Origin: Sphaerodactylus townsendi
Taxonomy: Eukaryota
Length of the DNA: 64,000 nt
Assembly (NCBI RefSeq): GCF_021028975.2
Contig: NC_059434.1
Span: 70,494,001-70,558,000, forward strand
Reading direction: 5' to 3'
Positions within the stretch are counted from its first letter, which is position 1. Every line of letters begins with the position of its first letter. The notes beneath the pieces are model-generated. The model was not told the origin of the DNA, ran no database searches, and saw only the letters and a list, made by a program, of their open reading frames with translations. Of the stretch, positions 11,126 through 63,187 are shown piece by piece. A program made the position numbers and the translations under genes.

Positions 11126-13170
11126 TGAATTACTCAAATAGAAACAGCCAATGAGGGGGAAAAACTGTTAGACATATTTTTTTATTTTTTTCTTCTCCTG
11201 ATATCTCCAACAACTTGGAAAGGACAGGTTTGTAACTGCTCCTAACCCCTGTCGGAAATTACTAGCTACTCTGGAGATTACTCCAGATGATGGAAAGATA
11301 ATCTTCTGCCTCCTCACATCTGCATATCCATCTGCCCAACCTCTCAAGATCAGACACATTACTGATAAATGCCATTATAATTCTCTCTGTTTCTCCCCTC
11401 TCCCTGTTTCCCCTGGCCTTACCCTTTAGCACACTTTCACGCCTGATGAACTGCAGTGACTAGTAGGAAGATTATTTTTATATATGCAACTCAACATGGT
11501 TCACTCTCCAAAAGAACTCACTTATTTCATGGACATTTGTAATTTTGCATCAGAGCTGCAAAAATGTCCATAAACCTTGGCAGGGTAGAAAATAGATATT
11601 TTTGAATATGTCAGTGCTGCCAATGTGGATTCTGTCTGGAAAGCAGTGACCCTTGGTCTGTTTTTGGCTGTACAGAGAAAAGCAATCAAGTTCTACCCTA
11701 ACCATTGATGTCTTTTCTTTCGTTTGCAAAGCCGGCCCATTTGGGATGAGATGCAAAAACAGAGGTATGAGGAAAGCTCAAGTATCTCTCCTTCTTTTTC
11801 CTTCTGTCCTTAACCACATCTGAAATAAGTGTTTTTGCAATCCCAGCTTTTGGCAGACAACTTGCCCTTCGAAAAGCACATCCATGCACATAATTCAGCA
11901 CATGTCAAGTAATTCCCAATAACTTTGAAATTACAAGTGTGAACAGTTTATATCAAAGGGAGTGCCACAAGGGAAGAGAAAGGCAAATAAGATAATAAAG
12001 AAACCGTAAGACAGTTGCTTGCCCTAGTTGTATACTTTAAAGAACAGCTGACAACATCACACTTTTCACCATCTTGGCTGCCGGCCAGACACCTGGGAAA
12101 TTTCCAAGACTGCCATTTTCACATTTGTGCTACTGTGTGCTAATTTTCTGGAAATGTCCTTCCTACCTGGAAATGTCCACAATATTGTTATGGCCAATGG
12201 CTAAAACAATAAAACTGAACTGAAATTATCCATGATTGATGAAACATCAGTGCTAGTGGTGATGAAGACAAAGATGTAGAAAGTAAAGATGGTTGTTTGT
12301 GGATACAATTCATATCCTCTGGCAGAGCAAAGTATTTACTGTCACTGAATGCCCAGTCATGCTGCTCTTCCTTGGGATTGATCCCACTCGGCACCAAATG
12401 CGTAAAGGTCCAAACCTGATAATCTTTTTATATCTTGCAATAAATAATGATGTTAAACAAATGTCTTCAACTGAAGACAGAAATAAGAGTGCAGTGAATC
12501 CATGGCCTTGGGGAACACTTGGATTGTAGCCTAAAAGAGTGTCAGAGATCTGTTAGTACATACTGGTCTTTGTAATGAGAGTTACATTAGAAATAATTTA
12601 GAGAAACTCTGGGAAACATTTGGAGCTTAGAATCAAGTCTTTGTGTTGGGCTCGAAAAAGGTTTTCTGAAATAATAACTTATCTGGAGGTTATATTGTCC
12701 TGCCCTATATTTGGTTTTGAGAAGTACATTGTAACTTAATACATTGTTTTGTTAAGCAGAATACGTTTACATATAAACTTTTTGTTGTGTTTGATTAATG
12801 TGATGCCCAGTGATTGTAAGAGGCATTTGTACAGAATTTTTGTTGGTAAATTCCAAAAGAATTCAGAGAAAATATTAACTCTATATTTCTGTTTATTGAT
12901 AATATCATACAGCTTTCTTGATTGTTTTGAATTACTGCATGTTAGAAAGAACAAAAAAAAGTATTTAACATCATTATTTATTGTAAAATATATAAGGATT
13001 ATCAAGTTTGTGTAGCCCTTTACTCATTTGGTGTAGAGTGGGATTGATTCAACCTTTAGGTGCACCTATGCCAATATAGATATAGTATCCTTACTTGGGA
13101 AGTAAGAGTTTTTCAAATTGTATTGCCACCACTCCAGGGAACCAGTCTTAGGTGACTTAAAAATAAAACA

Positions 13171-13301
13171 TAATAAGAACATAGAACATTAGCAGTCCAA
13201 TCCAATGGTTCACAAAAAAAAGCATAATAAGAACGTAGAACATTAGCAGTCCAATCCAATGGTTCACACAGTCCAATCCAATCCACACAGTCCAATCCAA
13301 T
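13171..13301. repeat. Tandem duplication plus (CAGTCCAATCCAAT)-like minisatellite
   Basis: ATAATAAGAAC(A/G)TAGAACATTAGCAGTCCAATCCAATGGTTCACA occurs twice, followed by shorter CAGTCCAATCCAAT units. Confidence 0.85.
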
Positions 13302-14019
13302 ATGTGAGGATGGCACCATTTTGGTACTGGCTTGCCTCCTGCAAATGGCTTTCCCACAGTGCAGGAGGCCAAAAAAAAGTTTTAAAAAACTGTACACCAT
13401 AAAATCCCCCATCGGTGAGAATAGAGATACCCCACGATCTCCGCCTGCAGCTCTGCCAGTGCCCCAGGACCAAATGAGCACTAGACACTGACTAAAGTCG
13501 GCCCTGCCCTCGGCCCACCACTCAAACACCCTGGGCTGCTTCCAGGTCAGTTGCCCCTCTGATGGTGCATTTGCCCCTTTTGCTGGCCAAATGGGCACTG
13601 CAGAATGGGCACTCCAGAGGGGGATTCCCCCCCCCCGCATTTGGCTGCCAAACTTATAAATTAAAAGACAGACTTTTAAAAAATCTATAATTAAAAACTG
13701 ATTTTTTTAAAAAAACAAGATAATTGAGCAGCTTAAAATAACAGTTTTCAGACCAAAAGAACACTATACAATGGTGTTAAAAGATTAAAAGCCTGGTCAG
13801 CAGAAACTTTTTGGCCTGGGAAAAAGAGATTAAGGTAGGTGCCAGGCAAGACTCAAGGGAAAGATTATATAAGCCACTACTGAAAAAGCCGTCTCTGGTA
13901 GCCACCTGCCTCACCTCAGAAGGTGGGGACATGGAGAGCAGGGCTGGTGAGGCAGATCTTAACTTGTGGGCTAGTCAATATGGAAAGAGACAGTCCCCCA
14001 TGTACTCAAGCCCTTTAGG

Positions 14020-14167
14020 CAGTGGTGGGATTCAAATAATTTAACAACCGGTTCCACTTGTGGGATTGAAATAATTTAACATGGTGCTTGTAACTGGTTG
14101 TTTACAAGCACCATTTTTAACAACCGATTCGGCCGAAGTGGTGCGAACCTGCTGGATCCCACCACTG
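14020..14167. mobile_element. hAT-type MITE
   Basis: CAGTGGTGGGAT ... ATCCCACCACTG TIRs, perfect 8-bp TSD CCTTTAGG. Confidence 0.88.
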
Positions 14168-16675
14168 CCTTTAGGCTTTTTAGGGTTGCCAACCATGTCG
14201 GCTCTTATAAGGCAGAGCACGGAGAGGGAGTATCACTGATGCAGTAACATCACTTCTGGATAATCACCCAGAACTGAAATCACTGCACCTACCTGCTGTA
14301 GAAATTCCCCATATCTCTATGGTAAAGACAATAGAATTTGGGAAAATTCCCAGAGCACTCCTGCTACAGTAACTAGAAGTGATGTCACTGCATCTGTGAC
14401 ATCAACTTCCAATTTTTCTTCCACTGTCAGAGTGAAGGAGCATAAATGATATTGGCGATTGCCCACCAGAGCAGTGGGGAGCATTGTAGGCCTGGTACAA
14501 ATCAACATTTTGAACTGTGTGGTTGATGTTTCATCTGTGTGATTTAGGAGGAAATCTCTGAGTTCCAGTTCTAGTCCAATTTTGGTTTAGTGCTTCAGGG
14601 GGGTGGACTTGTTGCCATCTGTTTTATGTGTTTTATTTAATGAATTTTATTGAATTATTTGTATTGATGTTGCACTGTTGTACTGTTGGTCTCACAGTGT
14701 ACGCCACCCTGGGCCCTTCAGGGGAGGGTGGGTCATAAATACAATAAATAAATAAATAATCCCTTGTGACTTTATCCTAGACAAAAGTAGGCATATAGGG
14801 TATATCACACATATTCATATAAATTTGCCACCGCTGAGAGAGGAGGTTGCCCTTGCAATCTTGTCTTCCCATTTACATTTATTTCCCCCAATTAGAAGGT
14901 CTGAAAGGGGCTACTAATAGTCAATATGGAGAGTGTGGAGACCTAGTTCAAATAGCCCTTCTTAGCTTCATAAAGGGAAGCCAACTCTGGGGCGAGAAAT
15001 TCATGGAGATTTGGAGGTACTGTGGGATTTGGGGAGGGGAAAGACCACAGTGAGGTGCAATGCTATAAAGTCCATTCTACAAAGCAACCATATTCTCCCC
15101 CAAAAAATGCCCTCTGTAGTCTGAAGATCACATATAATTCCTGAAGATCTCCTGACCACACCTGGAGACTGACCACATTATTTCTGAGTGACCATGGGAC
15201 AGCAATTATCTCTTGGTCTAACCAGCTGACAGGGTCATCTAAGCACAAAATGAGAAACGTCTGTCTAGATCTTGAAGTTCAGGAAGAGTAAAGATGTAAT
15301 GATGATGATTCCAACCCATTCAGGTTTCTAGCCATAATATCACTCTGATTTCTGGTATTTCCAGGGCAGAATTTGGTGGAGTAGCCAGTCAATAGAGGGT
15401 GTAAAAGGACCCAGCTTTATGGAAGCACTTTAACATGCACAATTTGTTAGCAATTTAATTAAACAGGAAAAATCAGTCAAGTCATCTGAGAGAAAGCTTT
15501 AGCAATCAAACCACACACACACACACAAATTCAATTGAAGTTCTTATTTTAGTAATATGCCCAGGATAACACTGCATTAATTTGAACCAACCATGCACTG
15601 CAGTATAGCTAAATCTCAGTGAAGTGTTTAGAAAAAGAAAACTTTGGCATCCAACTTGAGAGACAGTGTTAACTCAGAATCCTAATTATGTACAATGTAA
15701 CATAAACTGTAGCGTTGGCATTTAACACGGTTTCTTAGCCCTGGGGACGTTGCCTCCATGAAGCTTGTAATAAGAGCTACTTTGCAATTCTAACAACAGT
15801 TTAAGGCACGTCAAGGTCAAAATTAAGAATCTGAAAATGGGAAACTGCAGAATTCCACAGATTTTGATGTGGAACTTCAGAAGAAACAACACATTAGGGC
15901 TTCCTGTGTTTGACTCCAGTGCTAACAAACATTCAAATATATTTCTGAACAGAGCCTGCACACGTACAGCTGAAATGTGTGTAGGTGATTTCTGCAGCTT
16001 GCATGAATTCAGTTCAGATTAATGTTTGGGAGCTAAGGTAAGGGACAGGATCTTACTTAGGGTTGTACAAATATGCCCCATTTTGTTTCTTCTGTTTCTT
16101 TAGTGGTGCTTCCAATCTGTGTGATTCTTCTATGATATTGTATGTCATTAATATAACACTCATATATCCTTTATACATTATAGTTTGTTTTTTTTACTGA
16201 GAGTTCTACATTGGCTATCTTTTTGTTTGGGGGGGGGGGTGTCTGCTTTTATATGGATGCTTCAGAATTGTAGGGAGAACACAATGAAGTTAGTGCTGAA
16301 AAAGTTCAGATTTGATTTAAAATCTACTTGCCTCCAAAAGATTTGTTGTTGCCATGAATGACACGTGCTTAAGGCCTGTTCTCCAAACAGTAGGAAATGT
16401 TACCCAATGTCATTCCTACAGACTTTTTGTGTATTATAAAACCACAAATTAATTTCCTGTTTTATCACTGAGCACTGTCATGCAACAACCCAAACATTTT
16501 GATTAGTACATAATACCCAACTGTTTTGAGGATGGGGTTGACAATTACTGGATTACTTAGTAGGGTTACCACGGTTCTGCAGGAAAATGTGCTTCTTCCT
16601 ACATGAACTAGTATGCTTGAAGCATTTTGAGTCACTTTCAGTATTTTTCTAGTTTATTCTAGTTTATTCTTCTAG

Positions 16676-16722
16676 TGTATTCTTCTGAGCCCTTCGGGGG
16701 TACGGTGGTTTATCAAATCGAA

Positions 16723-16777
<55 letters not shown>

Positions 16778-16779
16778 AA
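16676..16779 (+). repeat. LINE tail with (TAAA)n microsatellite
   Basis: CTGAGCCCTTCGGGGGTACGGTGG followed by about 14 TAAA units. Confidence 0.8.
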
Positions 16780-17364
16780 CATACTAGAACCAAAATAGCA
16801 TCCAGAAACAGACATGTATACCAGTTAATCAACCAAAGCTGAATCCAGTCCTACCAACACTAAAAATAAGATAGAGACAAAATGTTCTGTGGTAAAAGAA
16901 TCAATAAAATTATACAAAAAACATACATTCTTTGAGCTCTACGGCAAATGTGTTCAATCCAGTCTTGGGGATTTGGATGCCCCTGTTCCCATTTAACTTG
17001 TTAATGAATTAATAGGTATGTGATACGTGACTCTCATGGCAACTTTGAAAAATTGCACCCTAGAGGAAGAACTTAACTGTGGAGTGGACTGAATATTTTC
17101 CCCATATTCTAATGGTGGCCCAAAGCAGTTCAACATTTATCAGAGCTTCAGAATGTGGTTCTGTGCAACTGAATGAAATTTTGGAAAACAGAAGTATCTC
17201 TCTCCCCTGACAGATTTTCTTTGGAAGGAAGCCAGGGAGTTTATCAAAATGTTAACCAGAAAGATTACTGCTTGAAAAAGCATAGTCAAATGAAATTTAA
17301 TCACTTATACAGTGAAATTTTGATGTTGTGGGAGCTCGAAGTTAACGCGATGTATCGCGTGGCT

Positions 17365-17562
17365 AGCAGCATTCAGATGATCTCCTGATGTTTCCAGCCA
17401 CATGCATTTGTGGCTGGAACATGCCATTCAGATGATCCTCTGAAGATGCCAGCCACAGATGCAGGCGAAACGTCAGGAGAGAATGCTGCTAGAACACGGC
17501 CATACAGCCCGGAAACCACACAGCACCCAAGTGATTCCGGCCGTGAAAGCCTTCGACTATAC
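17365..17562 (+). mobile_element. Penelope-like element 3' terminal repeat with scrambled inverted 5' segment
   Basis: CCTCTGAAGATGCCAGCCACAGATGCAGGCGAAACGTCAGGAG ... GATTCCGGCCGTGAAAGCCTTCGAC. Upstream pieces TCTCCTGATGTTTC and TGCATTTGTGGCTGG are reverse complements of it. Confidence 0.75.
17436..17478 (+). ncRNA. Minimal type-I hammerhead ribozyme motif (Penelope-associated)
   Basis: Stem I TCCT/AGGA, core CTGAAGA (17440-17446), stem II GCC/GGC, GAAA (17467-17470), palindromic ACGT helix III, GTC cleavage triplet ending at 17474. Confidence 0.7.
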
Positions 17563-18236
17563 AGAAACTGCTCATATCAGAAGCAATATTTTGAAGAAAT
17601 TCCTTAAGCTAGTTTCTGCAAATGCAAACTTTAACTGGTAGAGGAATCAGAATTGACACTTTATTGTTTATTGCTCAAAACATACTAGAGCCAAAGTAGG
17701 CCCATAAAAGAACCGCATATACCAGTTAATCAACCAAAGCTAAATCCTACCAATACTAACTGTTAATTGTTAATTTAATTATTGAAGTCAATTGGTAATT
17801 AATAATTTAATCATTGAAGGCAAATTCTAATTGATTTGATTTACATACACACCTATATAACTGTAGTCATTTTTAAGTCTATATTTTTATTTATATGAAT
17901 TGTTGGTTAACTTTTTCATCTACATCTATGGGAAGGAAGATTTTCAGAAATTTCATCAGTTATGCAATGAAGATAAAAGCACCATCTTGTACATGTGGTG
18001 TTTGTGACTGCTTCTTTCAACCTTGCCAGTGTTTCAGACTGCACCAATTCACTCCAGGACTTAACGTGGGCAAGTACAGATAGGAAGGAAGTTGTTACTG
18101 CAGCTCCACAGGGAGAACTAACCCTGTCTTACGAAACTGTACTTGTGTTTAACGCTATACTGCTTCTTTATTTCAATGCCTAGTATTAATAACACAAGAA
18201 TAGCTACAACTCATCAACCACCATAAATATCTATAT

Positions 18237-18572
18237 CAGGTTTCCCCAAATATTTTGAGCCTGAGGGCACATTTGAAATTCTTACACAGCTTGATGGGTG
18301 CAGCAACAGAATAGTTGGCTCAAAATGTCTGGCACAGCAGGCAGAGCTGGCCACAGCTTAATTTCACTAATACAGTGCTGCTGTGGCAGTGGCTGCCAAA
18401 GCAATATTTACAAAAATCTACACTGCCAATCAAATCCTCAATGTCCAATCAGAAGCCTTTATGGGCAAAACCCCTATCTGGTTCCACCCATTTCCTAAAA
18501 ACACTTACTGGGCACCAGAAAAGGTATCAGAAGAAGCCATAACACCCACTGGGGCAATGTTGGGGACCGCTG
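18237..18572. mobile_element. hAT-type non-autonomous element
   Basis: CAGGTTTCCCCAA ... TTGGGGACCGCTG ends, degenerate 8-bp TSD ATCTATAT/ATCTGTAG. Confidence 0.6.
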
Positions 18573-18597
18573 ATCTGTAGGCTTCTAACTACTACCC

Positions 18598-19226
18598 TGT
18601 CATGGCCCCCTCTGCTGTGGCTGACAGTTCATCAGAGGAAGACTTGCCTGAGCTGCGCAGCGCCATACCAGTTGTGTCAGCAGAAGAGGAAGAAAAGACG
18701 GCTGTGAATCATCACGGGCCGAAGTTGCCAATCCGGGGGGGAGGGGGGGGAGGCGGAATTTTCCCGTTCCAACCTCAACAAGGGCGGAAACAGGCAGATG
18801 GCCATGTTGGGCCAGGGCAAGCGCCAGCACAGCAGCAACCACAAACCATGTCAGGAAATGGGGAGGGTGGCCCAAGCCTTTAAAGGGCCAAGCCCTCCTT
18901 TATGCCGGCCATGTGCTTCGGCCAGCTAGTGATTGCTCTTGTGGCCCCGTTGCTCTTGTGGCGGTTTTGGTGCATGGGTATTGATCTGGAAGGGCCAGAG
19001 AAAGGGAGTTATCAAGCTCGGGAATGGAAGCAAGGGGCAACTGCCCTGCCGAACAGGGTGTATGGGGAGCACCTCTTGCCTGGCAGAGCCCCACAGTGGA
19101 GCTTCGCTGTGATGCTTATATGATCAGATCAAGACCCACTGTTTCAAGATTCACTGTTCTATGTTATTGGTGGTATTTGAGAGAATAAATCAGCCATACT
19201 TGAGGCTTGCTGAGCCTCATCCTTAC
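18598..19226 (+). mobile_element. Probable solo LTR
   Basis: Starts TGTCATGG, GC-rich body, TTTAAA TATA-like motif near 18880, AATAAA near 19184. The 3' terminus and TSD are unclear. Confidence 0.45.
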
Positions 19227-19239
19227 CTCTATTAAACAG

Positions 19240-19412
19240 ACTATTTATATTCCACTTTTCTTTTTAATGAGGACTGGCATAATTTTCCTGTATGCCATTT
19301 TATCTTCACAATAACCCTGAGATGTAATTTAGGCTAAGAGAGAATGACAGACCCAAGGTCAGATAGTGAGCTTCTGTGGCACAGTGGTGATTTGAACCTT
19401 GGTTTTCTAGAT
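19240..19412 (-). mobile_element. Old tRNA-derived SINE fragment
   Basis: CACAATAACCCTGAGATGTA ... CCCAAGGTCA ... GATTTGAACC, related to the Squam3-like body. Confidence 0.55.
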
Positions 19413-21107
19413 CTTTGTTTTCCCCTTCCCAGATGTCACTAATGCCTAATATCTGCCCTTGGACCAATAATGGATATATTTTAAATTATCCATCCTTGTG
19501 GTAAACTCCAGCCCTCCGTTCAGTTTTCTCACATTACCCTAATTCTCTGGCCTTCTGTGCGAACATGTCTCAAATAAGGACAGCACTAAGGAATATCAAT
19601 ACTTCACAAAATGAGATACAGCCTGCTAGAATTCATTTAATGCTACAGAGGCAACAATCATGTGTTTCTGTGTATGTATGTGCTGGTGTGAGGGAATACA
19701 GGATATAAACAAGTCCACGTCCTTGTTTAACGGGATTTAAGAAGCAACATGTGGCAAGCTTTTCAAACAAGATTAGTTTATCCTTGAATAATCTTGGAGA
19801 CGAGTTAATTCCAGTGTACCAGAACAAAAGGTTATAATCTTCCACCTCAGGGTATAAGAACCCCAAAGAAGCTTAAAACATTTCTGAAAAGCTCGCCATT
19901 TGAGCCAACTGAAACTTTTCTGTAAAATCCAAGCCTCTGTTCCAGATGTTAAAGGCTGAGTGGTGTTTGGGCTGGAGCGATATTTGGACTGGAGAGAAGA
20001 GACAGTTGGCATTGCTCTGAGGAGTTATTTTATCTGGGGATGTTTTGATACAAATCTGAGGCAGAAACAGGGAAGGCAGGCATCTCTGACCACATCCCAG
20101 ATGCATTCTTGCACTCACTTTTTGAGAAATCTAGTGCAGAAATATAAGGAGTCTAAACCAGTCAATCAAAACCTTCATTATTTACCAAAATGTTCTTTTT
20201 GCTCCAGTAGAGTACAAGGAAAATAATTAGAAACTAATAATATTTAACATTTATACAGTACATTTCACATTCATTATCTCAGTTATCCTTACAACATACA
20301 TTAATGGATTCATGCAAATACCTTTTCATGTCTCTTAATGTTCATGCATGGGTAAAAAGACCAGCAAGACCATTTGTACCTATTGTCTTTGGCTAGTTTC
20401 TCTTTGTCATTGTTTCTGTCCCAGCATTTTGACACAATTTTACATGATGTGCTGTTTTTTAATGCTACTTATACACATTTATGCTGCTTTCTCACAACTG
20501 TTTCCCTCCCCCCTTCCCTGGCACTAATGCATATGGCACTGTTTCCAACTTAAAGGACATATTGTTAAAAGGGGGGAAATACATTACATTTTAACTTTTG
20601 TATGTGTTGAGGCTTATGTCTCTGTGCTTTATGACAGCATAACTCAGTGCACATTGGTGGCTTCTGAGATACATGGATTCAGCTTTGTCTGCAAATGCAT
20701 GTTATCACACGGATTTATGGAAGTTGTAGTTTATTCCTTCCCTGTCCTCCCTCCCACATCCATTAAAACTTGCTTTTAAAACTACAAATATGGGTGTGTC
20801 TTGGGGCATATCACAACAGACGTCTTGTGACTCACAGTGGCCACATTGACAACTAAATGGAATTCAAGCTGCACTGTCTAGATCACAGATATATTTGCAC
20901 GAAGAAAGAGCAAACCTATGTGACTTGTGCTTAAACTAAGTCAGTGTAGTGATTTCACTATGACTTTAGGGGCTATGTGCCATTTCCTCTAATGATCAAA
21001 AACATTGTTTGCCCACTTCACAGGTGCAAAGCCAGCTCCAGTACAGTACTTTTTATTCCACTGTTCCTCCAAAGAGCCCATGGTGGTATACATAATTCTC
21101 TTTTTGG

Positions 21108-21410
21108 TAGCCAGAATAGTGTAGTGGTTGAGAGCAGGTGGGCTCTAATCTGGAAGACCAGGTTTGATTCCCATTCCTCCAGATGAGCAGCAAAGGCTTA
21201 CCTGGTGAACCGGATTCGTTTCCCCGCTCCTGCATTCCTGCTGGATGATCTTGGGCTAGTCATGATTCTCTCAGAACTCTCTCAACTTCACCTACCTCAC
21301 AAAGGGTTCTCACTTTGTGAGGTAGGTGGGCGAAAGAAGTGTGTAAGCCCCTTTAAATCGCCTTCAGGACAGAAAGGAAGGTATAAATCCAAACTACTAC
21401 TCCTCTTCTA
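21108..21410 (+). mobile_element. tRNA-derived SINE (Squam3-like)
   Basis: TGTAGTGGTTGAGAGC ... GGTTTGATTCCC head, CACCTACCTCACA body, ATAAATCCAAACT tail. Confidence 0.8.
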
Positions 21411-21485
21411 TTTTATCCTCATAACAACCCTGTGAAGTAGGGTAAGTTAAAAAATGTGACTGGCTCCAAGTCACCTCATAACAGA

Positions 21486-21626
21486 GGCTCATTCTGCACA
21501 TGCAGAATAATGCACTTTCAAACTGCTTTCAGTGCTCTTTGAAGCTGTGCGGAATGGCAAAATCCACTTGCAAACAGTTGTGAAAGTGGTCTGAAAACAC
21601 ATTATTTTGCGTGTGCAGAAGGGGCC
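21486..21626. mobile_element. Harbinger-type MITE family A (opposite orientation), nested in a SINE fragment
   Basis: GGCTCATTCTGCAC ... GTGCAGAAGGGGCC, TSD AGA/AGA. Confidence 0.85.
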
Positions 21627-21656
21627 AGAGTGATGATTTGAACCTGCATCCCTCAG

Positions 21657-21856
21657 ACCCCAGATCTGGATGATCTGGGTTAGTCTAGCCTCATCAGATC
21701 TCAGAAATTAAGCAAGGTTGGCCATATTTTGTATTTGGATAGGAAACCACTAAGAAAATCCAGGGTCGTTACACAGAGGCAGGCAATGGCAAAACCACCT
21801 TTGTTTTTCTCTGAAAATCCTACAAGGATAAGTCAGTTGTGATTCAATGGCACTTC
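21657..21856 (+). mobile_element. 5S rRNA-derived SINE (degraded)
   Basis: CTCATCAGATCTCAGAAATTAAGCA ... TTGGATAGGAAACC resembles the 5S internal promoter, followed by a GGCAATGGCAAAACCACC RTE-type tail. Confidence 0.7.
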
Positions 21857-22904
21857 CTCCAGCCTAGATCCTCATCTGACATTAAATGACAAAGGCACGA
21901 CCAAGCCATGACTTCATAGCACAAGTGGCTATTATGTAGGCTTTTTCTGCATAGCAGAAATATAATGTATTGAGGGCATTTTAAAAAGCGTTTTGGGGAA
22001 GAAGTTTGCACAAATCTTGTTTCATCCTGTTGCTCCAACAGGCAGCAGACCTAATGTACAAACTTCTGTTCTCCATTCCCATGAGAAATGCCTGCCTTTG
22101 TCTTGGTAAGACTATTCTTTGTTGAGATGAAGAATCAGATGCATCAAGATAGAGTCTGGATCTGGAATTACCTCTTAGAGCATTTGTATGATCATCCCTT
22201 CATTCTGTCTTTCAGATCCCTTCTCAAAGCCCACCTTTGAATGAAAACCCACTTTTTCAATAGATACTGCAGCGCACACCCTTCCTAAGCCTAAGCAAAT
22301 GTAGCTAGAATGAGCATATATTCTTACCCTGTTTATCCTCATTTTTTTGTTGTGTTTTATCTTATGTAAGTCTTTGGATTGTAATTACATCCAAGCAGGG
22401 ATCTGATTTCTACTACTTTGTAAAGTGCCATGGCATAAAGTAAATACTAACAGTTTTTGTTAGTTTTGTTTTGTAGGCAGAGGGAGAAGTTCAGTTTAAA
22501 AACTGCTCTAAAATCAGCAACATTTAATAACTATTTTGGAGAACTGTTAAGAATACCTTTAGAATTTCTGTGTTTTAAAATTGGACCAGGCAGATGGAAG
22601 AATAAGATATTTTTAATGGCCCTGCCTCTGGTCCATACCCGCTCCAGTGCCAGAAGGGTGTGTGTGTGTGCAATTTCAATGCTTGCTCTGGGCTCTGTTT
22701 TCTATAGATATGCCCTTCTAGCCACACTTGTGTTCTTCATGCAGACCAAACACAAAAAGCCAAAACAGATCTTTAAAAAAAAATGTCTTCAGGATGTTTT
22801 ATTTCTTTTGTGCGGAAAAGACCAAAGCTATTCAGCTCAGCATTGAGTCGAGCATAATTACAGCAACATATATAAGGCCTTTGGTTTGCTGAAGAAAAGA
22901 ATAG

Positions 22905-23018
22905 CCGGGGAAAGCAATGGCAAACTACCCCACAGAAGAGGCTTGCCTATAAAATCACTGCTCGCAGTGGTACCCCAGGGTTGAACACGACTGAAGGGGA
23001 AGTTTTACCTTTTTACCA
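22905..23018 (+). mobile_element. Sauria-like SINE 3' fragment
   Basis: GCAATGGCAAACTACCCC ... ACACGACTGAAGGGG ... TTTTACCTTTTTACC. Confidence 0.55.
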
Positions 23019-31174: not shown

Positions 31175-31612
31175 TCTGTTATCAAAGGTTTTTTTATGAC
31201 TGAATCAGCTGGCTATTGTGGGTTTTTCAGGCTGTGTGACCGTGCTCTGGTAGTTTTTGCTCCTAACATTTCACCCATTTATATGGCTGGCATCTTCAGA
31301 AGGCATGTCACGGTGAGATGTGTTTCTCTCTGTGGCACTATGGAAACATATCTCACTAAGGCTCCTTCTGCACATGCAGAATAATGCACTTTCACTCCAC
31401 TTTCACAATTGTTTGCAAGTGGATTTTGCTATTCGGCACAGTAAAATCCAGCTTCAAAATGCATTGAAAGTGGATTGAAAGTGCATTATTCTGCATGTGC
31501 ACAAGGGGCCCATGACATGCCCCTAAAGATGCCAGCTATAGATGCAGGTAAAACATTAGGAGCAAAAACTACCAGAACATGGTCATGCAACCCAGAAAGC
31601 CCACAACAGCCC
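31175..31612 (-). mobile_element. Penelope-derived inverted-repeat (hairpin) element interrupted by a MITE
   Basis: Left arm 31210-31330 is the reverse complement of the right arm (31343-31357 plus 31511-31612). Both arms match the 17436 repeat including a decayed hammerhead core. Confidence 0.7.
31360..31510. mobile_element. Harbinger-type MITE, family A variant
   Basis: GCACATGCAGAATAATGCACTTTCA at both ends in inverted orientation, GGC...GCC termini. Confidence 0.8.
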
Positions 31613-34600
31613 ATTTTCTTTAAAGTAAAGAGTTTGGGTCAAGGGTAGGTCATGGTCATGACTTTCTTTGGAACAAAACACTTTCCTCTGAAGGGAGTGT
31701 ATCAGCATTGCGTGTTGTGGGAAAGCTCCTTGAGTTGGAAAATGGTGCCTCTTTTATCTGAGCAGAGGGTTGGACGTAGCCTATGGTCCCTCCTTAAGAT
31801 AAATGGCCTCTTATGCAGGAAGCCTGTTAAGCTTAAATAAAACAGATTTTATAAATGTGTATTGGCATTACGATATTGTTTGCAATAATAATACTAATGC
31901 TCCGTTTTTGCAGTTACCTAGACTACCTTGCCTGACATCCCACTCCGATAATATCCTCCATCTGCTCTGCCGTGTCTGTCATTTCTTTCCTCTATAACAT
32001 ATTGTGACAGAGGCTTCATTTACCTAAACTTATCTTGGCAACTTGTACTTCATTAAAGAGAATCCTGCAATCATCAGTTAAAGCTTTCCCCCTCCTATCT
32101 GGCCATGCATAGCTAAGCTTCATAAATCATTCCTTCACTTTCCATTTTGCAGCTCCTGGAAAGGTAACATTATTGAATTCAGATCACTGCAATAGACCGG
32201 TACTAAAATGTTTACTGACCGCTTTTTAGGCACTGAGCTTTTGCTTTTGAATGCAGATGGTAATATTAGCTAAAGCTTTCAATTTTTTTAAAAAAATGGA
32301 TGTCACTAATATGTTTTATACATTGTTGTAAATACCTCTGATGGCAAGCCATTGGCACGAAACTGCCAGCAGAAAGCGTATAAAGTCTTCTTTTCTCCCA
32401 TGCTTCTCTGGTTCTTTACTCAGCCTAGAAGCGTTTGGTAGGAACACCTTTTGGTACAGATCCCTAAGTATATGAAAAAGCACTCTGTCCAACTTGTAGA
32501 ATGCAGGACTGTATTCATACCTGGATGTGTTCTCCATATATATGTGGATAGAATAATCTGGTGGTTGCAAAGACCTGCTACAGTGCCGTTGAGGCTGCCT
32601 TGAGCATAATGTTCCCAGACAACCTGGCAACTGGTGAGCGGGGGCTGCAAAGTTGCTCAAGAATTTGAAATAAGGGCAGCCTCATGAGCTTCCCAGAAGT
32701 CTTTAAAAGAAGTGACAAAGGGTAGTTCTGAAAATTCCAAAAATCCTATGTGAAACTATAGAGCTTCTGGTGATTCCTAGAGCTACCATTTGGTAAGAAC
32801 CTCTGGGGGTACATAAGGCTACAATTAAAAAAAAAACAATCCCACTGCCACTCCAAGGACCAATAGGCAATGATCTCTTTTTTTGCCTTCTAACAAAACT
32901 GGCAAGCCAAATGAGGGTTCTAGATTGGCAGGGTCAGGAACAAACCAGGCCCTTTGCCTTTCCCAGATCAACAGACCACTTCATTCTGCCTCAAGCTGAG
33001 GACTTCAGTCTCCTATCTCTCTAGCTTGTCCAGCACAGGCTTCAGGACTAGCTACCACCATGGATGTCAAAGATGTCCAATTGGCCATGACTGTTCCCTT
33101 GCAGTATTCAAACCTGGATGTTTCCAGAGACCGCATGGAAGGTCAAAGGGTCTTTCAGTCTGAGACAGCAAAATGCTATTCTATATTTAAATTTTTTATC
33201 TGAAAGCCTTGGCCACACAACCTGCTTTGAGTCACATTGAAGACAGATTGAAAAGCAGCTGCAGGAGGCACAGGTGGTGGCAGCCTGGAAGCAGAAGTAA
33301 TCCTTGCAGATGGTTTATATACTCCATACGGACCACAGTGGTATTTGATGATGACAGGGTTTCATGGCTTTAATTCTAACTTCTGTCCTGGAAACTTTAA
33401 GGAGTCCTCACCATTCTGTTGTTTGTCAAACAATGGCACAACTCAACCTGTTTCATATTGCAAACCCTTCAACAACAATAGGCTAGAAAGCAACTCAAAG
33501 GAGTCCAGTCCAAACACAAACACAGAGGCATAATCTCTTGTATCAAAAGCTTCCCACAGCAAATTAGCCAGTATATTTGGGCTAGTTCAAACACTGCTTG
33601 TTTAACGCTTGATAATATGCCTGGCAAAAATTTTCTCTTAAAGGAAATAGCCAAATATGGAAATCAGTTGGAGCACTGATTTAATCTACACCCAAGCACT
33701 CACAATCATCTTCAGATATGTGCTTACCAAGATATGAACCAAACATCCATACATATACCCAGCTACACTTCCTAAGATGGAACAATCAGCTCTTAACCAG
33801 CAGCTGCGATCACATGCTTTTTTTCTAAATTATTGAGTATGAGACTCATGGATTATGTTTCTTTAGATGAATGCATATCTAGGAAGGCTGGGACTGTTTT
33901 CATATAGACAAAATCAGCCCCATCCACTAACCATCCACCATCCACCAACCATCCAAATCAGCCCCATCCACTAACCGTGGGAGCTGAGACTCTTGAACCT
34001 GGAAAATCTTGTTGGTCTCCAAGATGCTTCTGATCTCAAATCTAGTTGATCCATTAATCCAGCCATTCAATTTCTATGAAGCAACAGTTTTTCTATTTGC
34101 AGAAGAGGGAATTTCTCCTCCCACGGCCAACTCCTCGATGGGCTGCTGCAGAAGGGAAAAGAACATCCCACTTTATGAAACCTGCAGATAATCTGCCAGT
34201 ATCTCCACACAACAAACAGTTTCCCTACTGGAGATGTGTAGAATGTCAATTTGCCTCTGCATCACAATACTTAGCCTTGCATGTCAAGTGTTTAGTTGCA
34301 TCTTTTGATGTGAACTGAGATGTGCATTCCCATCCAGGGTCACTAGTAATGGTGAATGAGAAAGTATAATTGGTCCCTGATAGCCTAAGCATGAATCTTC
34401 TTCGCCGAGTTCTTCACATTTTATGAGTACTCTAATGTTATTTTAGTTTCACCTTAGAATAAAAAAGGTGGATATTTTCTTTCAAGCAGAAAAAACTCTA
34501 CTTTCATTAAGTTGATCCTGTTTATGTCCTTTACAGTACTTCTTTGGATCTTGGCCAATATGCAAACAGCACAAATGTATATCATTTGCAAAATCTGCTA

Positions 34601-44444: not shown

Positions 44445-44558
44445 ATCTTGCCTGCTTGGAATTGTCACAGCCTTGAGCCACAAGGCAGAAGTGGAGTATA
44501 AATATTTTAATACATAAATGAAATAAATAAACAATTTGATTTTCAAACTCCACAAAGA

Positions 44559-44831
44559 CCTTCACGGCCAGATTCAACTGGTTCTGGTGGGTTTTCCGAG
44601 CTGTGTGGCCGTGTTCTGGTGGATTTTGTTCCTAACGTTTCACCTGTATCACAGAGAAAAGTCTGTTTCATACTGTGTCTAAGTGAGAAGGGAAAGTTTA
44701 TACCACAATATACCACACTAAACTCTGTGATACACCTCTGAAGATGCCAGCCACAGATGCAGGTGAAATGTTAGGAAGAAAATCCACCAGACCACGGCCA
44801 CACAGCCCGGAAAACCCACCAGAACCAGCTG
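44559..44831 (-). mobile_element. 273-bp Penelope-derived inverted-repeat element
   Basis: Arms 44575-44656 and 44723-44831 are reverse complements. Hammerhead core CTGAAGA at 44738-44744. 9-bp TSD CCACAAAGA (44550-44558 and 44832-44840). Confidence 0.78.
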
Positions 44832-56111: not shown

Positions 56112-56485
56112 GGTGGATTCTGCACAGGCTAAATATAGGTGTAGGATGTGATATAAACCATTTGGGGGGGACACTTCGCACAGGTCCCATTTGGGGGGAA
56201 CTTCACACAGATTCCGTTCCCAAAATGGTTTTGCCCTGTGTTATTACCATCAACCCAGGAGTTTTGAAGATCACTAAACTAGCAACTCCAAGCTCTCCTC
56301 AGATTTTCTCCATAGAAACCAAACTGTAAGAAATGGTGCTTAACGGTGTTGTAAAAATGGTGTTATAATGCCAACAGAGTTTTTTTTAAAAAAAATGACT
56401 GCAGTGATTTTTTCAGATGGTGTGGAAGTCATCTAGTAGTATTGCTTCTAACATTTCACCCACTACTACAGTCAGCATCTTCAGA

Positions 56486-57231
56486 CTGCTCTCATGGTGC
56501 AGGGAAAATAACCTGGTTCTTAACACTAACAAGACAAAGGAGCTCATAGTGGACTATAGAAGGAATAGCTCAGAAATTCAGCCCTTGACTATAAATGGAG
56601 ATCAAGTGGAGCGGGTGGCTAGTTTTAAATTTCTGGGCGTTATGATTAAAGAGGACTTGACCTGGGGCGTACAGACTGCCGCGGTGGTTAAGAAAGCCCA
56701 GCAAAGACTGTACTTTCTGAGACTTTTAAGGAAGCAACAACTAGATGGAAAACTTCTGGTGTCCTATAGAGAGTGTCCTAACCTACTGCATCTGTGTATG
56801 GTTCTCCAGTTGCACAGTGGCGAATAGGAAGGCGCTCCAAAGGGTGATCACTACTGCACAAAGGATTATCGGCTGCCCTCTTCCCTCCTTGGAAGAAATC
56901 TATAATTCCCGAAGCCTAAATAAAGCCCAAAATATTCTGAGGGACCCGTCTCATCCAGCACACTCTCTTTTTAAACTGTTACCATCTGGCAGACGATACA
57001 GGGCCCTCAGAACTAGGACAAAGAGGCTTAGAGACAGCTTCTACTCTAGAGCTGTGGCTATGCTAAACTCCGCTGCTTCATATTGATGTATTTGGGGCTG
57101 TGTAGGGATGGGTGGAGGAAGGGGAAAGTGTGGATGATGTATGAGTCTGAAATTGTGTGCATCGAGGAATGCTGCTGTAAATTTCGTTGTGCGTGCGCAA
57201 TGACAATAAAATGCTTATGCTTATGCTTATG
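56486..57231 (+). mobile_element. Rex1/Babar LINE, 5'-truncated (RT C-terminus and 3' UTR)
   Basis: WCRENNLVLNTNKTKELIVDYRR...FKFLGV...KKAQQRLYFLRLL, one frameshift near 56765, then IESVLTYCICVW...DPSHPAHSLFKLLPSGRRYR...RLRDSFY. Stop at 57086, AATAAA and (ATGCTT)n tail, flanked by CAGA on both sides. Confidence 0.88.
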
Positions 57232-57826: not shown

Positions 57827-59340
57827 GGTGTCCAAGCAGAGTCCATTTGCAGTTGCATTTGAATGTCTCTGTTTTTGTTTTGGTGTTTTTTTAGTACCAG
57901 TAGTCAGGTTTTGTTGATTTTCAAGCTGACTTCCTTTTTGTTGAAACTGTCCTGGTGTTTTCAGATTTCAGTGGCTTCCTTGTACAGTCTGACATGGTAG
58001 CTGTTGGAGTGTCAAGAATGTCTATGTCTTCAAATAAGATCCTATGTCCAGATTAGTTTACAGCATGTTCTGCTAATGCTGGTTTCCCAAGTTGGATTGG
58101 TCACCAATGCCTTTCATGTTCACAAAGATGTTCATGTTCACTCCCTCCCCACCCAGGACACTGAGGTAATAAATGATAATTTCTAAACACTGCAACTTCA
58201 AAAATAAGTAACTTATCCTTAGTCTAGCCATCTCATAGGGCATGTGCAAAAGCAGAAAGGAAGATTTGTGGTTATATCACTTTTTGTTTGATCCTTGTTC
58301 AGTTTGCTGAGTAAATAGACCATGGGGCACACTTTGATTACTTCATTAAAATTCTTTTTAATTTAATTGCTGGTAGCCTGATCTAATTCAATCATGCTTA
58401 TCTGGCAGAAAGGCCAGGGGTGGCTATAGATCTCTTCATCTCCACAGTATGCAAGTGTGCATGCTAGTCCTCCTCATAGTAGTTGGTGAGTATGAAGTGA
58501 GACACAAGGCAAAGATGAGAAGCCCTTAAATGGCACTGTGGTAGGCAGTTCTGAAATGGTGGTCCTGCTGCAGAAAATATTCCTTAAGTTTGCAAAGTTG
58601 CAGCCAAAATACCCAGAAAGAACTAAGTATCATGTGAGTAAGGGAAACGTGGGTCGCGAGCATTATTTTTCCCATATTTGGAAAGAGGTGAATGTTTATT
58701 TTATGTGTTGCTTATTCATACAATTCCTACCACCAAATAGATGGACAGCAGAAATAAAATCAAAGTCTCTAGGTTGACCAAAAGCCCCTACTGAACAATA
58801 CCATCGTTATATCATGTTCTGACAGATAAATGGTTTTATTAGCACAAATGTGTGAAATATCTGCCATCTAACATTCCCTTGAGCTATCACCTTTCTGCAA
58901 GGTGCAAGGGAAGTGAGCAAAGTATGTATTTCATTGTTAAGGATCTTATTTCTTGAGCATTCGCCGTCTTACAAGCTATGGTACAATTAATGTAAAACTT
59001 TAAGTAGCACATTCTTAACCTTTGCTAAGCACAAGAAAAACATAGGAAAATGATTGTTGCCAGATGAATTTGACCCATTTGATGCACTTGAATATCAGCA
59101 ACTCACAGTGCAGAAAAACTAGAGGCAATATGGACAGTGTGAAGGTTCAAACTAGAAAAGGGGGAAATATTCTAGTAGTCAGAAATAATGGCACCAGAGC
59201 CTTGCAGAAGTCTTTGATACTCTGATATAGTGTCCTAAGAATGGGGTGAAAGCTAAACTTCGGATTCCTTCTAGGACAAAAGGGTTTCAGAAATATAGTA
59301 AGTGGCAGTCAATCAATTTGCATACACTACCATAAGATAA

Positions 59341-59517
59341 ATGTGAGGGTGATCTGGCTGAAATCTGTCACCCCAATGATCACTAGGGTTGATACAGCTG
59401 ACCTGGCTGGCATCCCTCTCAAAACTGTGCACTTGGTGAAAGAGGACAACCATCCCTGATAGGAGTGTATTATTCTTCAATCAAATTACACAGCTCCCCT
59501 GCAAGTATCTCCAGAAA
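59341..59517 (+). pseudogene. RN7SK: 7SK snRNA pseudogene, internally deleted and 3'-truncated
   Basis: ATGTGAGGGTGATCTGGCTG..ATCTGTCACCCCAATGATCACTAGGGTTGAT..GCTGACCTGGCTGGC, then AGAGGACAACCATCCCTGATAG ... GCTCCCCTGC..CTCCA, match the recalled vertebrate 7SK sequence with CpG decay. Confidence 0.85.
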
Positions 59518-59521
59518 CTTA

Positions 59522-59662
59522 GGCCCCTTTCGCACACGCAAAATAATGTGTTTTCAAACCACTTTCACAACTGTTTGCAAGTGGATTTTGCTATTCTGCA
59601 CAGCTTCAAAGAGCACTGAAAGTAGTTTGAAAGTGCATTATTCTGCATGTGCGGAATGAGCC
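59522..59662. mobile_element. Harbinger-type MITE family A
   Basis: Same ~140-bp sequence, TSD TTA/TTA. Confidence 0.87.
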
Positions 59663-62969: not shown

Positions 62970-63187
62970 GCCCTGATCTGGATGGCCCAGGCTAGCCTGA
63001 TCTCATCAGATCTCAGAAGCTAAACAGAGTGGGCCCTGGTAAGTACTTGGATGGGAGACCACCGAGGAATACCAAGGTTGCTATACAGAGGAAGGCAATG
63101 GCAAACCTCCTCTGAATGTCTCTTGCCATGAAAACTCTACTTGGTTGCCAAAAGTCAGTTGCAGTTTGATGGCACTTTACACACACG
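62970..63187 (+). mobile_element. 5S rRNA-derived SINE, best-preserved copy
   Basis: GCCTGATCTCATCAGATCTCAGAAGCTAAACAG..GGGCCCTGGTAAGTACTTGGATGGGAGACC..GGAATACC (5S A box, IE, C box) plus a GGCAATGGCAAACC tail ending (AC)n. Confidence 0.85.

Follow-up and report, generated by a model that had tools for sequence, protein, structure and literature searches.

The stretch of DNA considered here (the window: 64,000 nt of the forward strand of Sphaerodactylus townsendi contig NC_059434.1, positions 70,494,001–70,558,000) contains on its + strand, at 17436–17478, a motif that its sequence, a type-I descriptor and its match to the Anolis element Poseidon_Ac (PAc) mark as a minimal type-I hammerhead ribozyme of a Poseidon-clade Penelope-like element (PLE). 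The CUGANGA, GAAA and NUH segments occur in type-I order. Stem I is made up of TCCT (17436–17439) and AGGA (17475–17478); the stretch from C3 to A9 is CTGAAGA (CUGAAGA in RNA, 17440–17446), and is followed by an extra unpaired U (17447) between positions 9 and 10.1. Stem II comprises GCC (17448–17450) and GGC (17464–17466), and folding indicates that it can be extended to five pairs across an A.A mismatch, giving a stem-loop at 17448–17466 (GCCAGC/GCAGGC) with a 7-nt loop. GAAA (17467–17470), CG (17471–17472) and TC (17473–17474) complete the core, and within this region (17467–17474), which includes the GUC triplet, the palindrome ACGU (17470–17473) takes the place of helix III. A preliminary description of this DNA had listed the same parts, from TCCT through AGGA, and when checked in the sequence all of them lie where it had put them; its view that ACGU stands in for helix III agrees with both the sequence and the identity to PAc. 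Short stem I, a G10.1–C11.1 pair closing stem II, the extra base after A9 and the palindrome are the traits of PLE minimal hammerheads (min-HHRs), and on these sequence features the motif belongs to that already published class.

The ATG of the element's open reading frame (ORF) lies inside the ribozyme, at 17446–17448, where it overlaps A9, the extra U and G10.1. The same ATG is used in two longer copies of the element, L051 and L131 (see below), and it is in the register of PAc. The predicted cut, after 17474, falls 26 nt past this ATG, and codons 1–11 (MPATDAGETSG) double as the 3' part of the ribozyme.

In the window the type-I descriptor has this motif as its sole match, and 100 dinucleotide shuffles of the window, searched on both strands, gave two loose but no strict matches, so the motif is not a product of chance. 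Searching with hammerhead models, as had been proposed in the preliminary description, gave a divided result: the descriptor finds the motif, whereas the Rfam hammerhead families had no match at E ≤ 5 over 12000–23000, none at gathering score in the window, and none at E ≤ 10 in two parent elements. (Matches to Rfam miRNA models in the parent elements were below gathering score, and reflect inverted arms.) Because the Rfam models do not detect the motif, its identification as a hammerhead rests on descriptor and homology together; min-HHRs were originally defined by an RNAmotif descriptor (Cervera and de la Pena, 2014, PMC4209133), and we do not regard an Rfam match as a defining trait of those in PLEs.

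The sequence 17440–17478 occurs unchanged 10,485 times in the 1.81-Gb genome (0 times for the reversed pattern used as a control), and some of its copies belong to elements with long ORFs. L131 (4299–6758) has an uninterrupted ORF of 819 aa that opens at the ATG inside the ribozyme; L051 has a broken 612-aa reverse transcriptase (RT) ORF from the same ATG, with the motif in both of its direct flanking repeats (at 2916 and 5621) and an inverted arm at 2779–2886. In several loci TATATA is found about 40 nt 5' of the ATG, as a TATA-like box of the pLTR. The 819-aa ORF scores against RVT_1 in Pfam (E 1.1e-12) and carries YVDD and GVY-VYIG motifs. Pfam gave no GIY-YIG match in this ORF or in four fragments, although its GIY-YIG-type motif GVYRIPCSCGQVYIG is identical in an Anolis protein, and among its homologues one carries PF01541 and another is named GIY-YIG. 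The best relative is a protein of Anolis carolinensis (690/816 residues identical, 85%), and the N-terminus of that protein agrees with the PAc template given by Frangieh et al. (2024, PMC11167929); by this route, a sequence comparison, the parent is assigned to the Penelope/Poseidon clade of endonuclease-bearing (EN+) PLEs. The preliminary description's placing of the motif in a Penelope terminal repeat was thus well founded, the motif lying within the repeat of a Poseidon element. Relatives beyond the Anolis proteins fall to 56–62% identity, the named ones being from beetles, and horizontal transfer of the L131-type parent is possible. Elsewhere in the window, on the minus strand, a fragment at 57902–58121 is 73% identical to the endonuclease region of L051.

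The copy in the window is far from complete. Its forward arm (17434–17557, + strand), delimited by comparison with L131 and L051, by the RT starts of PAc and by the 3' ends of other arms, covers only –12 to +112, counted from the ATG. Over the 122 nt from –10 to +112 it does not differ from L131, and over –12 to +112 it has one difference from L051. This 124-nt stub, which is the 5' end of the ORF and stops in the distal ('tail') RT start region, has no promoter, none of the upstream part of the repeat with the TATA-like box, and no further ORF. It is preceded, head to head, by an inverted arm on the minus strand (17313–17433, located by nhmmer and by two contigs, X1 and X2), which runs from a proximal end near +88 back through the hammerhead; the nhmmer match itself covers 17436–17318. 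The preliminary description had overlooked this arm, as well as the shortness of the stub with its lack of a promoter and the 10,485-fold occurrence of the motif. The insertion is bounded on the right by an AT-rich target-site duplication, TATACAGAAACT (17558–17569), and on the left by its counterpart at 17306–17312, which is TATACAG in the window and 12 nt long in X1 and X2. The insertion site is also flanked by two direct copies of a short sequence (16775–16850 and 17675–17750), which have diverged, are separated by some 900 bp and are unrelated to the stub.

The left arm as assembled is odd: when the window's inverted arm is aligned to the forward arm, only 87 of 104 columns are identical and gaps are numerous. 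The X1 and X2 contigs equal the window throughout the left flank, but after 17312 they have, in place of the letters seen in the window, an inverted arm that is almost perfect, which implies the 12-nt duplication. Might the scrambled arm nevertheless be a real allele, produced by repeated template switching or by repair of the polymerase-theta type? It does read as short pieces of the element patched together in either orientation, patchwork spacers are found at other junctions (e.g. in L051), and the individual from which the window derives is not established as sample S1. Against this, a clean arm with its duplication follows a flank without differences in X1 and X2, and the window's 17325–17362 has no cover in any of the runs. 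Moreover, kilobase-scale poly-G/poly-C stretches stand at three other inverted Poseidon junctions of the same assembly (L007, L035 and L132; about 5 kb in L132); these are likely to be sequencing or assembly artefacts of hairpins, and they indicate that the assembly has trouble with such structures. We therefore consider a real scrambled allele rather unlikely, and take the scrambled arm to be very probably an assembly error. A 1,853-aa frame that might have been read as a fused ORF was rejected, as it is poly-G/C filler.

The insertion is recent. Contigs from five sequencing runs were surveyed for the site: X1 and X2, which come from one sample, carry the insertion, and the other three runs are empty, with a single copy of the target, in another sample of the same species (X3) and in two other organisms (X4 and X5). 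The contigs spanning the empty site match the flanks with few differences. Both CpGs of the hammerhead are intact, as the preliminary description had noted, and we attribute this to recent insertion rather than to selection or to anything special about the copy. The intactness of the motif might otherwise suggest a ribozyme taken over and maintained by the host, for which the conserved intronic hammerheads of amniotes provide a model. The orthologous site is empty in a conspecific individual and in the two other organisms, however, and the motif is identical to thousands of siblings; unless the empty contigs are paralogous, the empty sites exclude an exapted host ribozyme, and we give this explanation next to no weight.

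To place the copy within its family, we sampled 1.424 Mb (the window, 160 kb of neighbouring sequence and 120 stretches of 10 kb each, evenly spaced). These contain 99 arms, which extrapolates to about 125,000 in the genome; 58 of the 99 form 29 head-to-head pairs, and the other 41 are single. Arm 3' ends fall into two clusters, at +83 to +92 and +114 to +122, and a pair generally combines an end from each, so that one arm is long and the other short. This holds for 20 of 23 pairs whose two ends both lie at defined sites, and for 29 of 31 in a second, partly selected set that overlaps the first. The two lengths agree with the pair of RT start sites in PAc (PMC11167929) and with the published tail on one side only (PMC8557442 and PMC3846280). 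Eighty-five of the 99 arms span the cut site, so most templates were evidently uncut. Arm 5' ends cluster at –35 to –30 (18/99) and at –14 to –10 (15/99) from the ATG; the latter cluster coincides with a GATC palindrome and a sequence that we take to be an initiator-like motif, downstream of the TATA-like box. Related Poseidon subfamilies have older copies in the window at 31179–31620, 44553–44831 and 56390–56486 (two head-to-head pairs and one single arm), and the hammerheads of these copies show CpG decay.

The descriptor is still matched by 13 of 64 motif-spanning arms, and the departures from it are mostly at CpGs, as expected for neutral decay. Intact motifs are found in 9 of 31 paired and 4 of 33 single arms, a comparison confounded by age. 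Covariation in stems I and II had been named in the preliminary description as a mark of a working ribozyme, and none is apparent above the level of shuffles. In the alignment (of the 64 motif-spanning arms, 55 without deletion relative to the reference, less three with insertions), 52 copies (46 distinct) have 87.4% of stem I and II cells paired, compared with 87.0% when shuffled, and a covariation score of 0.111 that is reached by 64 of 500 shuffles, the copies being too young and too alike for the comparison to have much power. Against PAc, there is one change from G.U to G–C and one from U.G to A.A. Divergence outside CpGs is 0.037 in the core and 0.079 in the flanks, but is confounded by the mixing of subfamilies and so is not evidence of selection.

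Among the side branches of the family, subfamilies B and C (e.g. L129:3274–3317 and L082:1965–2008) have GUU for GUC (24 of 25 and 10 of 10 copies, respectively) and only three stem I pairs; because of these two features their cleavage may be poorer or lacking altogether. When other types of stem II were sought by descriptor, there were 71 matches, compared with 322 in the reversed control, so that the count alone is not evidence for such types. Several low-copy, hammerhead-like motifs (L135, L138, L139 and L158–L162) are unrelated to the Poseidon family and have an A after the core and different paired stem II sequences; 8 of 22 non-Poseidon loci have at least four pairs, and L138 and L139 combine this with a stem I of 4 bp. 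Possibly these represent older PLE families.

Could the copy in the window cut? The preliminary description had supposed that it could cleave + strand transcripts, probably only when paired with a second copy. Folded in isolation, the motif forms stem II with a probability of 0.96 and stem I with one of only 0.08–0.13 (0.03–0.13 over the folds that leave out the inverted arm), and the overall stability is about that of shuffled sequences (z –0.45). The head-to-head layout means that an antisense arm would be transcribed first, whichever strand is read. For the whole insertion the predicted probability of stems I and II is 0.0 (minimum free energy –110.6 kcal/mol, computed with the window's left arm, which is probably misassembled), and it is likewise 0.0 in an equilibrium prediction for a nascent transcript ending at the ribozyme; 17355–17500 folds at z –10.3. 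If the real antisense arm covers the motif, the hammerhead of this copy is thus predicted to be trapped in a hairpin. For the near-identical PAc ribozyme, PMC11167929 reports cleavage only in the presence of the protein of its element, and RNA-seq showed no ends at the cut site. The dimer model published for min-HHRs involves low activity (PMC4209133). Given the stem probabilities, the protein needed by PAc and the poor cutting of min-HHR dimers, cleavage by this copy is most likely absent, and the supposition that it could cut + strand transcripts is not borne out.

In the view of the preliminary description, the copy would act in trans, cutting host + strand transcripts after 17474 when paired with a second copy. 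The core, both CpGs and the 4-bp stem I are intact, and the family offers upwards of 10,000 identical copies with which it might pair; min-HHR dimers and trimers have low activity in vitro (PMC4209133), and a double-hammerhead fold of two copies is energetically allowed, at –15.7 kcal/mol. That fold lies 7.5 kcal/mol above the cofold minimum (–23.2), however, and the improbability of stem I and the behaviour of PAc count against trans activity too. Nor was a host gene, or its strand, found around the insertion by Pfam searches of the frames in the window: none of 291 stop-free frames of at least 62 aa has a host-gene domain, although this is a weak test for short exons. The only Pfam match above cut-off (ALKBH8_N, E 4.6e-12) is in a 139-aa frame at 56408–56827 that looks like the end of a LINE-type RT, not a host exon. 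(Rfam matches elsewhere in the window, to 7SK at 59347–59604 with 52.7 bits and to 5S rRNA at 62978–63089 with 49.6 bits, probably represent pseudogenes or the heads of SINEs, and a further repeat lies within the 7SK-like copy.) We consider an active, trans-pairing ribozyme at this locus very unlikely. The reading that we favour, with a probability of roughly 0.87, is that a Poseidon PLE of very high abundance is the source of this intact hammerhead, which is carried in a young, polymorphic head-to-head stub as a probably silent, non-cutting passenger. One observation goes slightly against a silent passenger: arms whose 5' end lies no more than 2 nt from the cut site appear slightly over-represented (3 of 25 in an unbiased set, p 0.29; 5 of 25 at selected loci, p 0.037; 8 of 50 combined, p 0.033), these values being against a flat expectation and for a range chosen after the data had been seen.

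How might such a stub arise? By analogy with PAc, for which PMC11167929 reports nicking and extension of both strands and reverse transcription that begins within the RNA, at +111 to +118, the element's protein would nick both strands of an AT-rich target, the nicks being about 12 nt apart. Two copies could then be made of the uncut 5' end of the element's RNA, one from a distal start at about +112 to +118 and the other from a proximal start at about +88, and the two short cDNAs would be linked through their 5' ends immediately upstream of stem I. A read-through transcript of the product, having the antisense arm followed by the sense hammerhead, would be expected to zip into a long hairpin. 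Candidate target-site duplications of 10–16 nt accompany about 14 of 40 pairs. Those seen at L001–L030 and in the sampled pairs are rich in A and T, and many run a few bases into the ends of the element, a hint that microhomology plays a part in priming; PAc was primed without homology in vitro (PMC11167929). In the intact parent element, the ribozyme is likely to be a slow switch that needs the element's protein and probably a second copy, engaged through the ACGU palindrome. A cut 26 nt into the ORF of its own mRNA would stop translation rather than release a template, so the ribozyme might serve the parent as an off-switch. In PMC11167929, ribozyme mutants of PAc were unaffected in insertion in vitro, the ribozyme not being required.

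Taken singly, the locus matters little, being one young copy of a published ribozyme class of which a near-identical member has been assayed. A wider proposal, which we regard as unlikely, is that some 10,000 or more hammerheads are intact in this genome, with head-to-head insertion acting as an antisense lock against the cutting of host transcripts, and that a minority of stubs are fossils of cleavage in vivo. Such a lock, if real, would feed small-RNA silencing, and stubs beginning at the cut site would record a cleavage in vivo that the Anolis RNA-seq failed to show. Since polymorphic copies provide both filled and empty alleles, a direct test is possible, and together with the more than 10,000 identical copies they are convenient material for testing both cutting in cells and its suppression by the inverted arm. 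In practice, the locus also serves as a caution that the assembly of this genome is probably faulty at palindromic Poseidon insertions.

Of known systems, the nearest is PAc (Frangieh et al., 2024, PMC11167929), with which 17436–17478 agrees at 37 of 43 bases (compared by eye with the template given in the Methods). The two share the catalytic core, the extra U, the ACGU palindrome and the GUC triplet, the ATG within the ribozyme with a cut 26 nt after it, and two 3'-end sites about 30 nt apart, in addition to the kinship of the parent proteins noted above (85%). They differ at six bases, which lie at the end of stem I (four pairs here, three in PAc), at N7 (A here, G in PAc), in stem II (three differences: an A.A mismatch and a G–C pair here, U.G and G.U in PAc) and in loop II. 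Unlike PAc, the present copy is a promoter-less, 124-nt stub behind its own antisense arm.

The layout of the stub recalls the inverted pLTR insertions of EN+ PLEs in PMC8557442 and PMC3846280, which have the same head-to-head arms, a tail of 30–40 bp at one end, a target-site duplication, an empty allelic site and similar difficulties of assembly. The stub differs in that both of its arms are only about 100–125 nt long with no ORF body between them; and the self-priming on the antisense template that PMC3846280 prefers for head-to-head junctions is a different route from the two-primer model proposed above. The non-LTR retrozymes of animals (bioRxiv 10.64898/2026.07.22.740005) likewise have a type-I hammerhead of PLE origin and are non-coding. 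They are tandem, head-to-tail arrays, whereas the stub is head-to-head; no tandem array was found over the motif, and an assignment to the retrozymes was therefore rejected.

The metazoan PLE min-HHRs, as described in PMC4209133, are of the same type I without stem-loop III, have palindromic positions 15.2–16.2, the additional base between 9 and 10.1 and the G10.1–C11.1 pair, and for the most part lie dispersed, one by one, as remains of truncated PLEs; pairs on opposite strands, 100–700 bp apart, are also described. Searches of the literature showed that the ribozyme class, the assay in Anolis and the layout of inverted arms with a tail have all been described before. Where PMC4209133 stresses high variability within a genome, though, S. 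townsendi presents one young subfamily with more than 10,000 identical copies.
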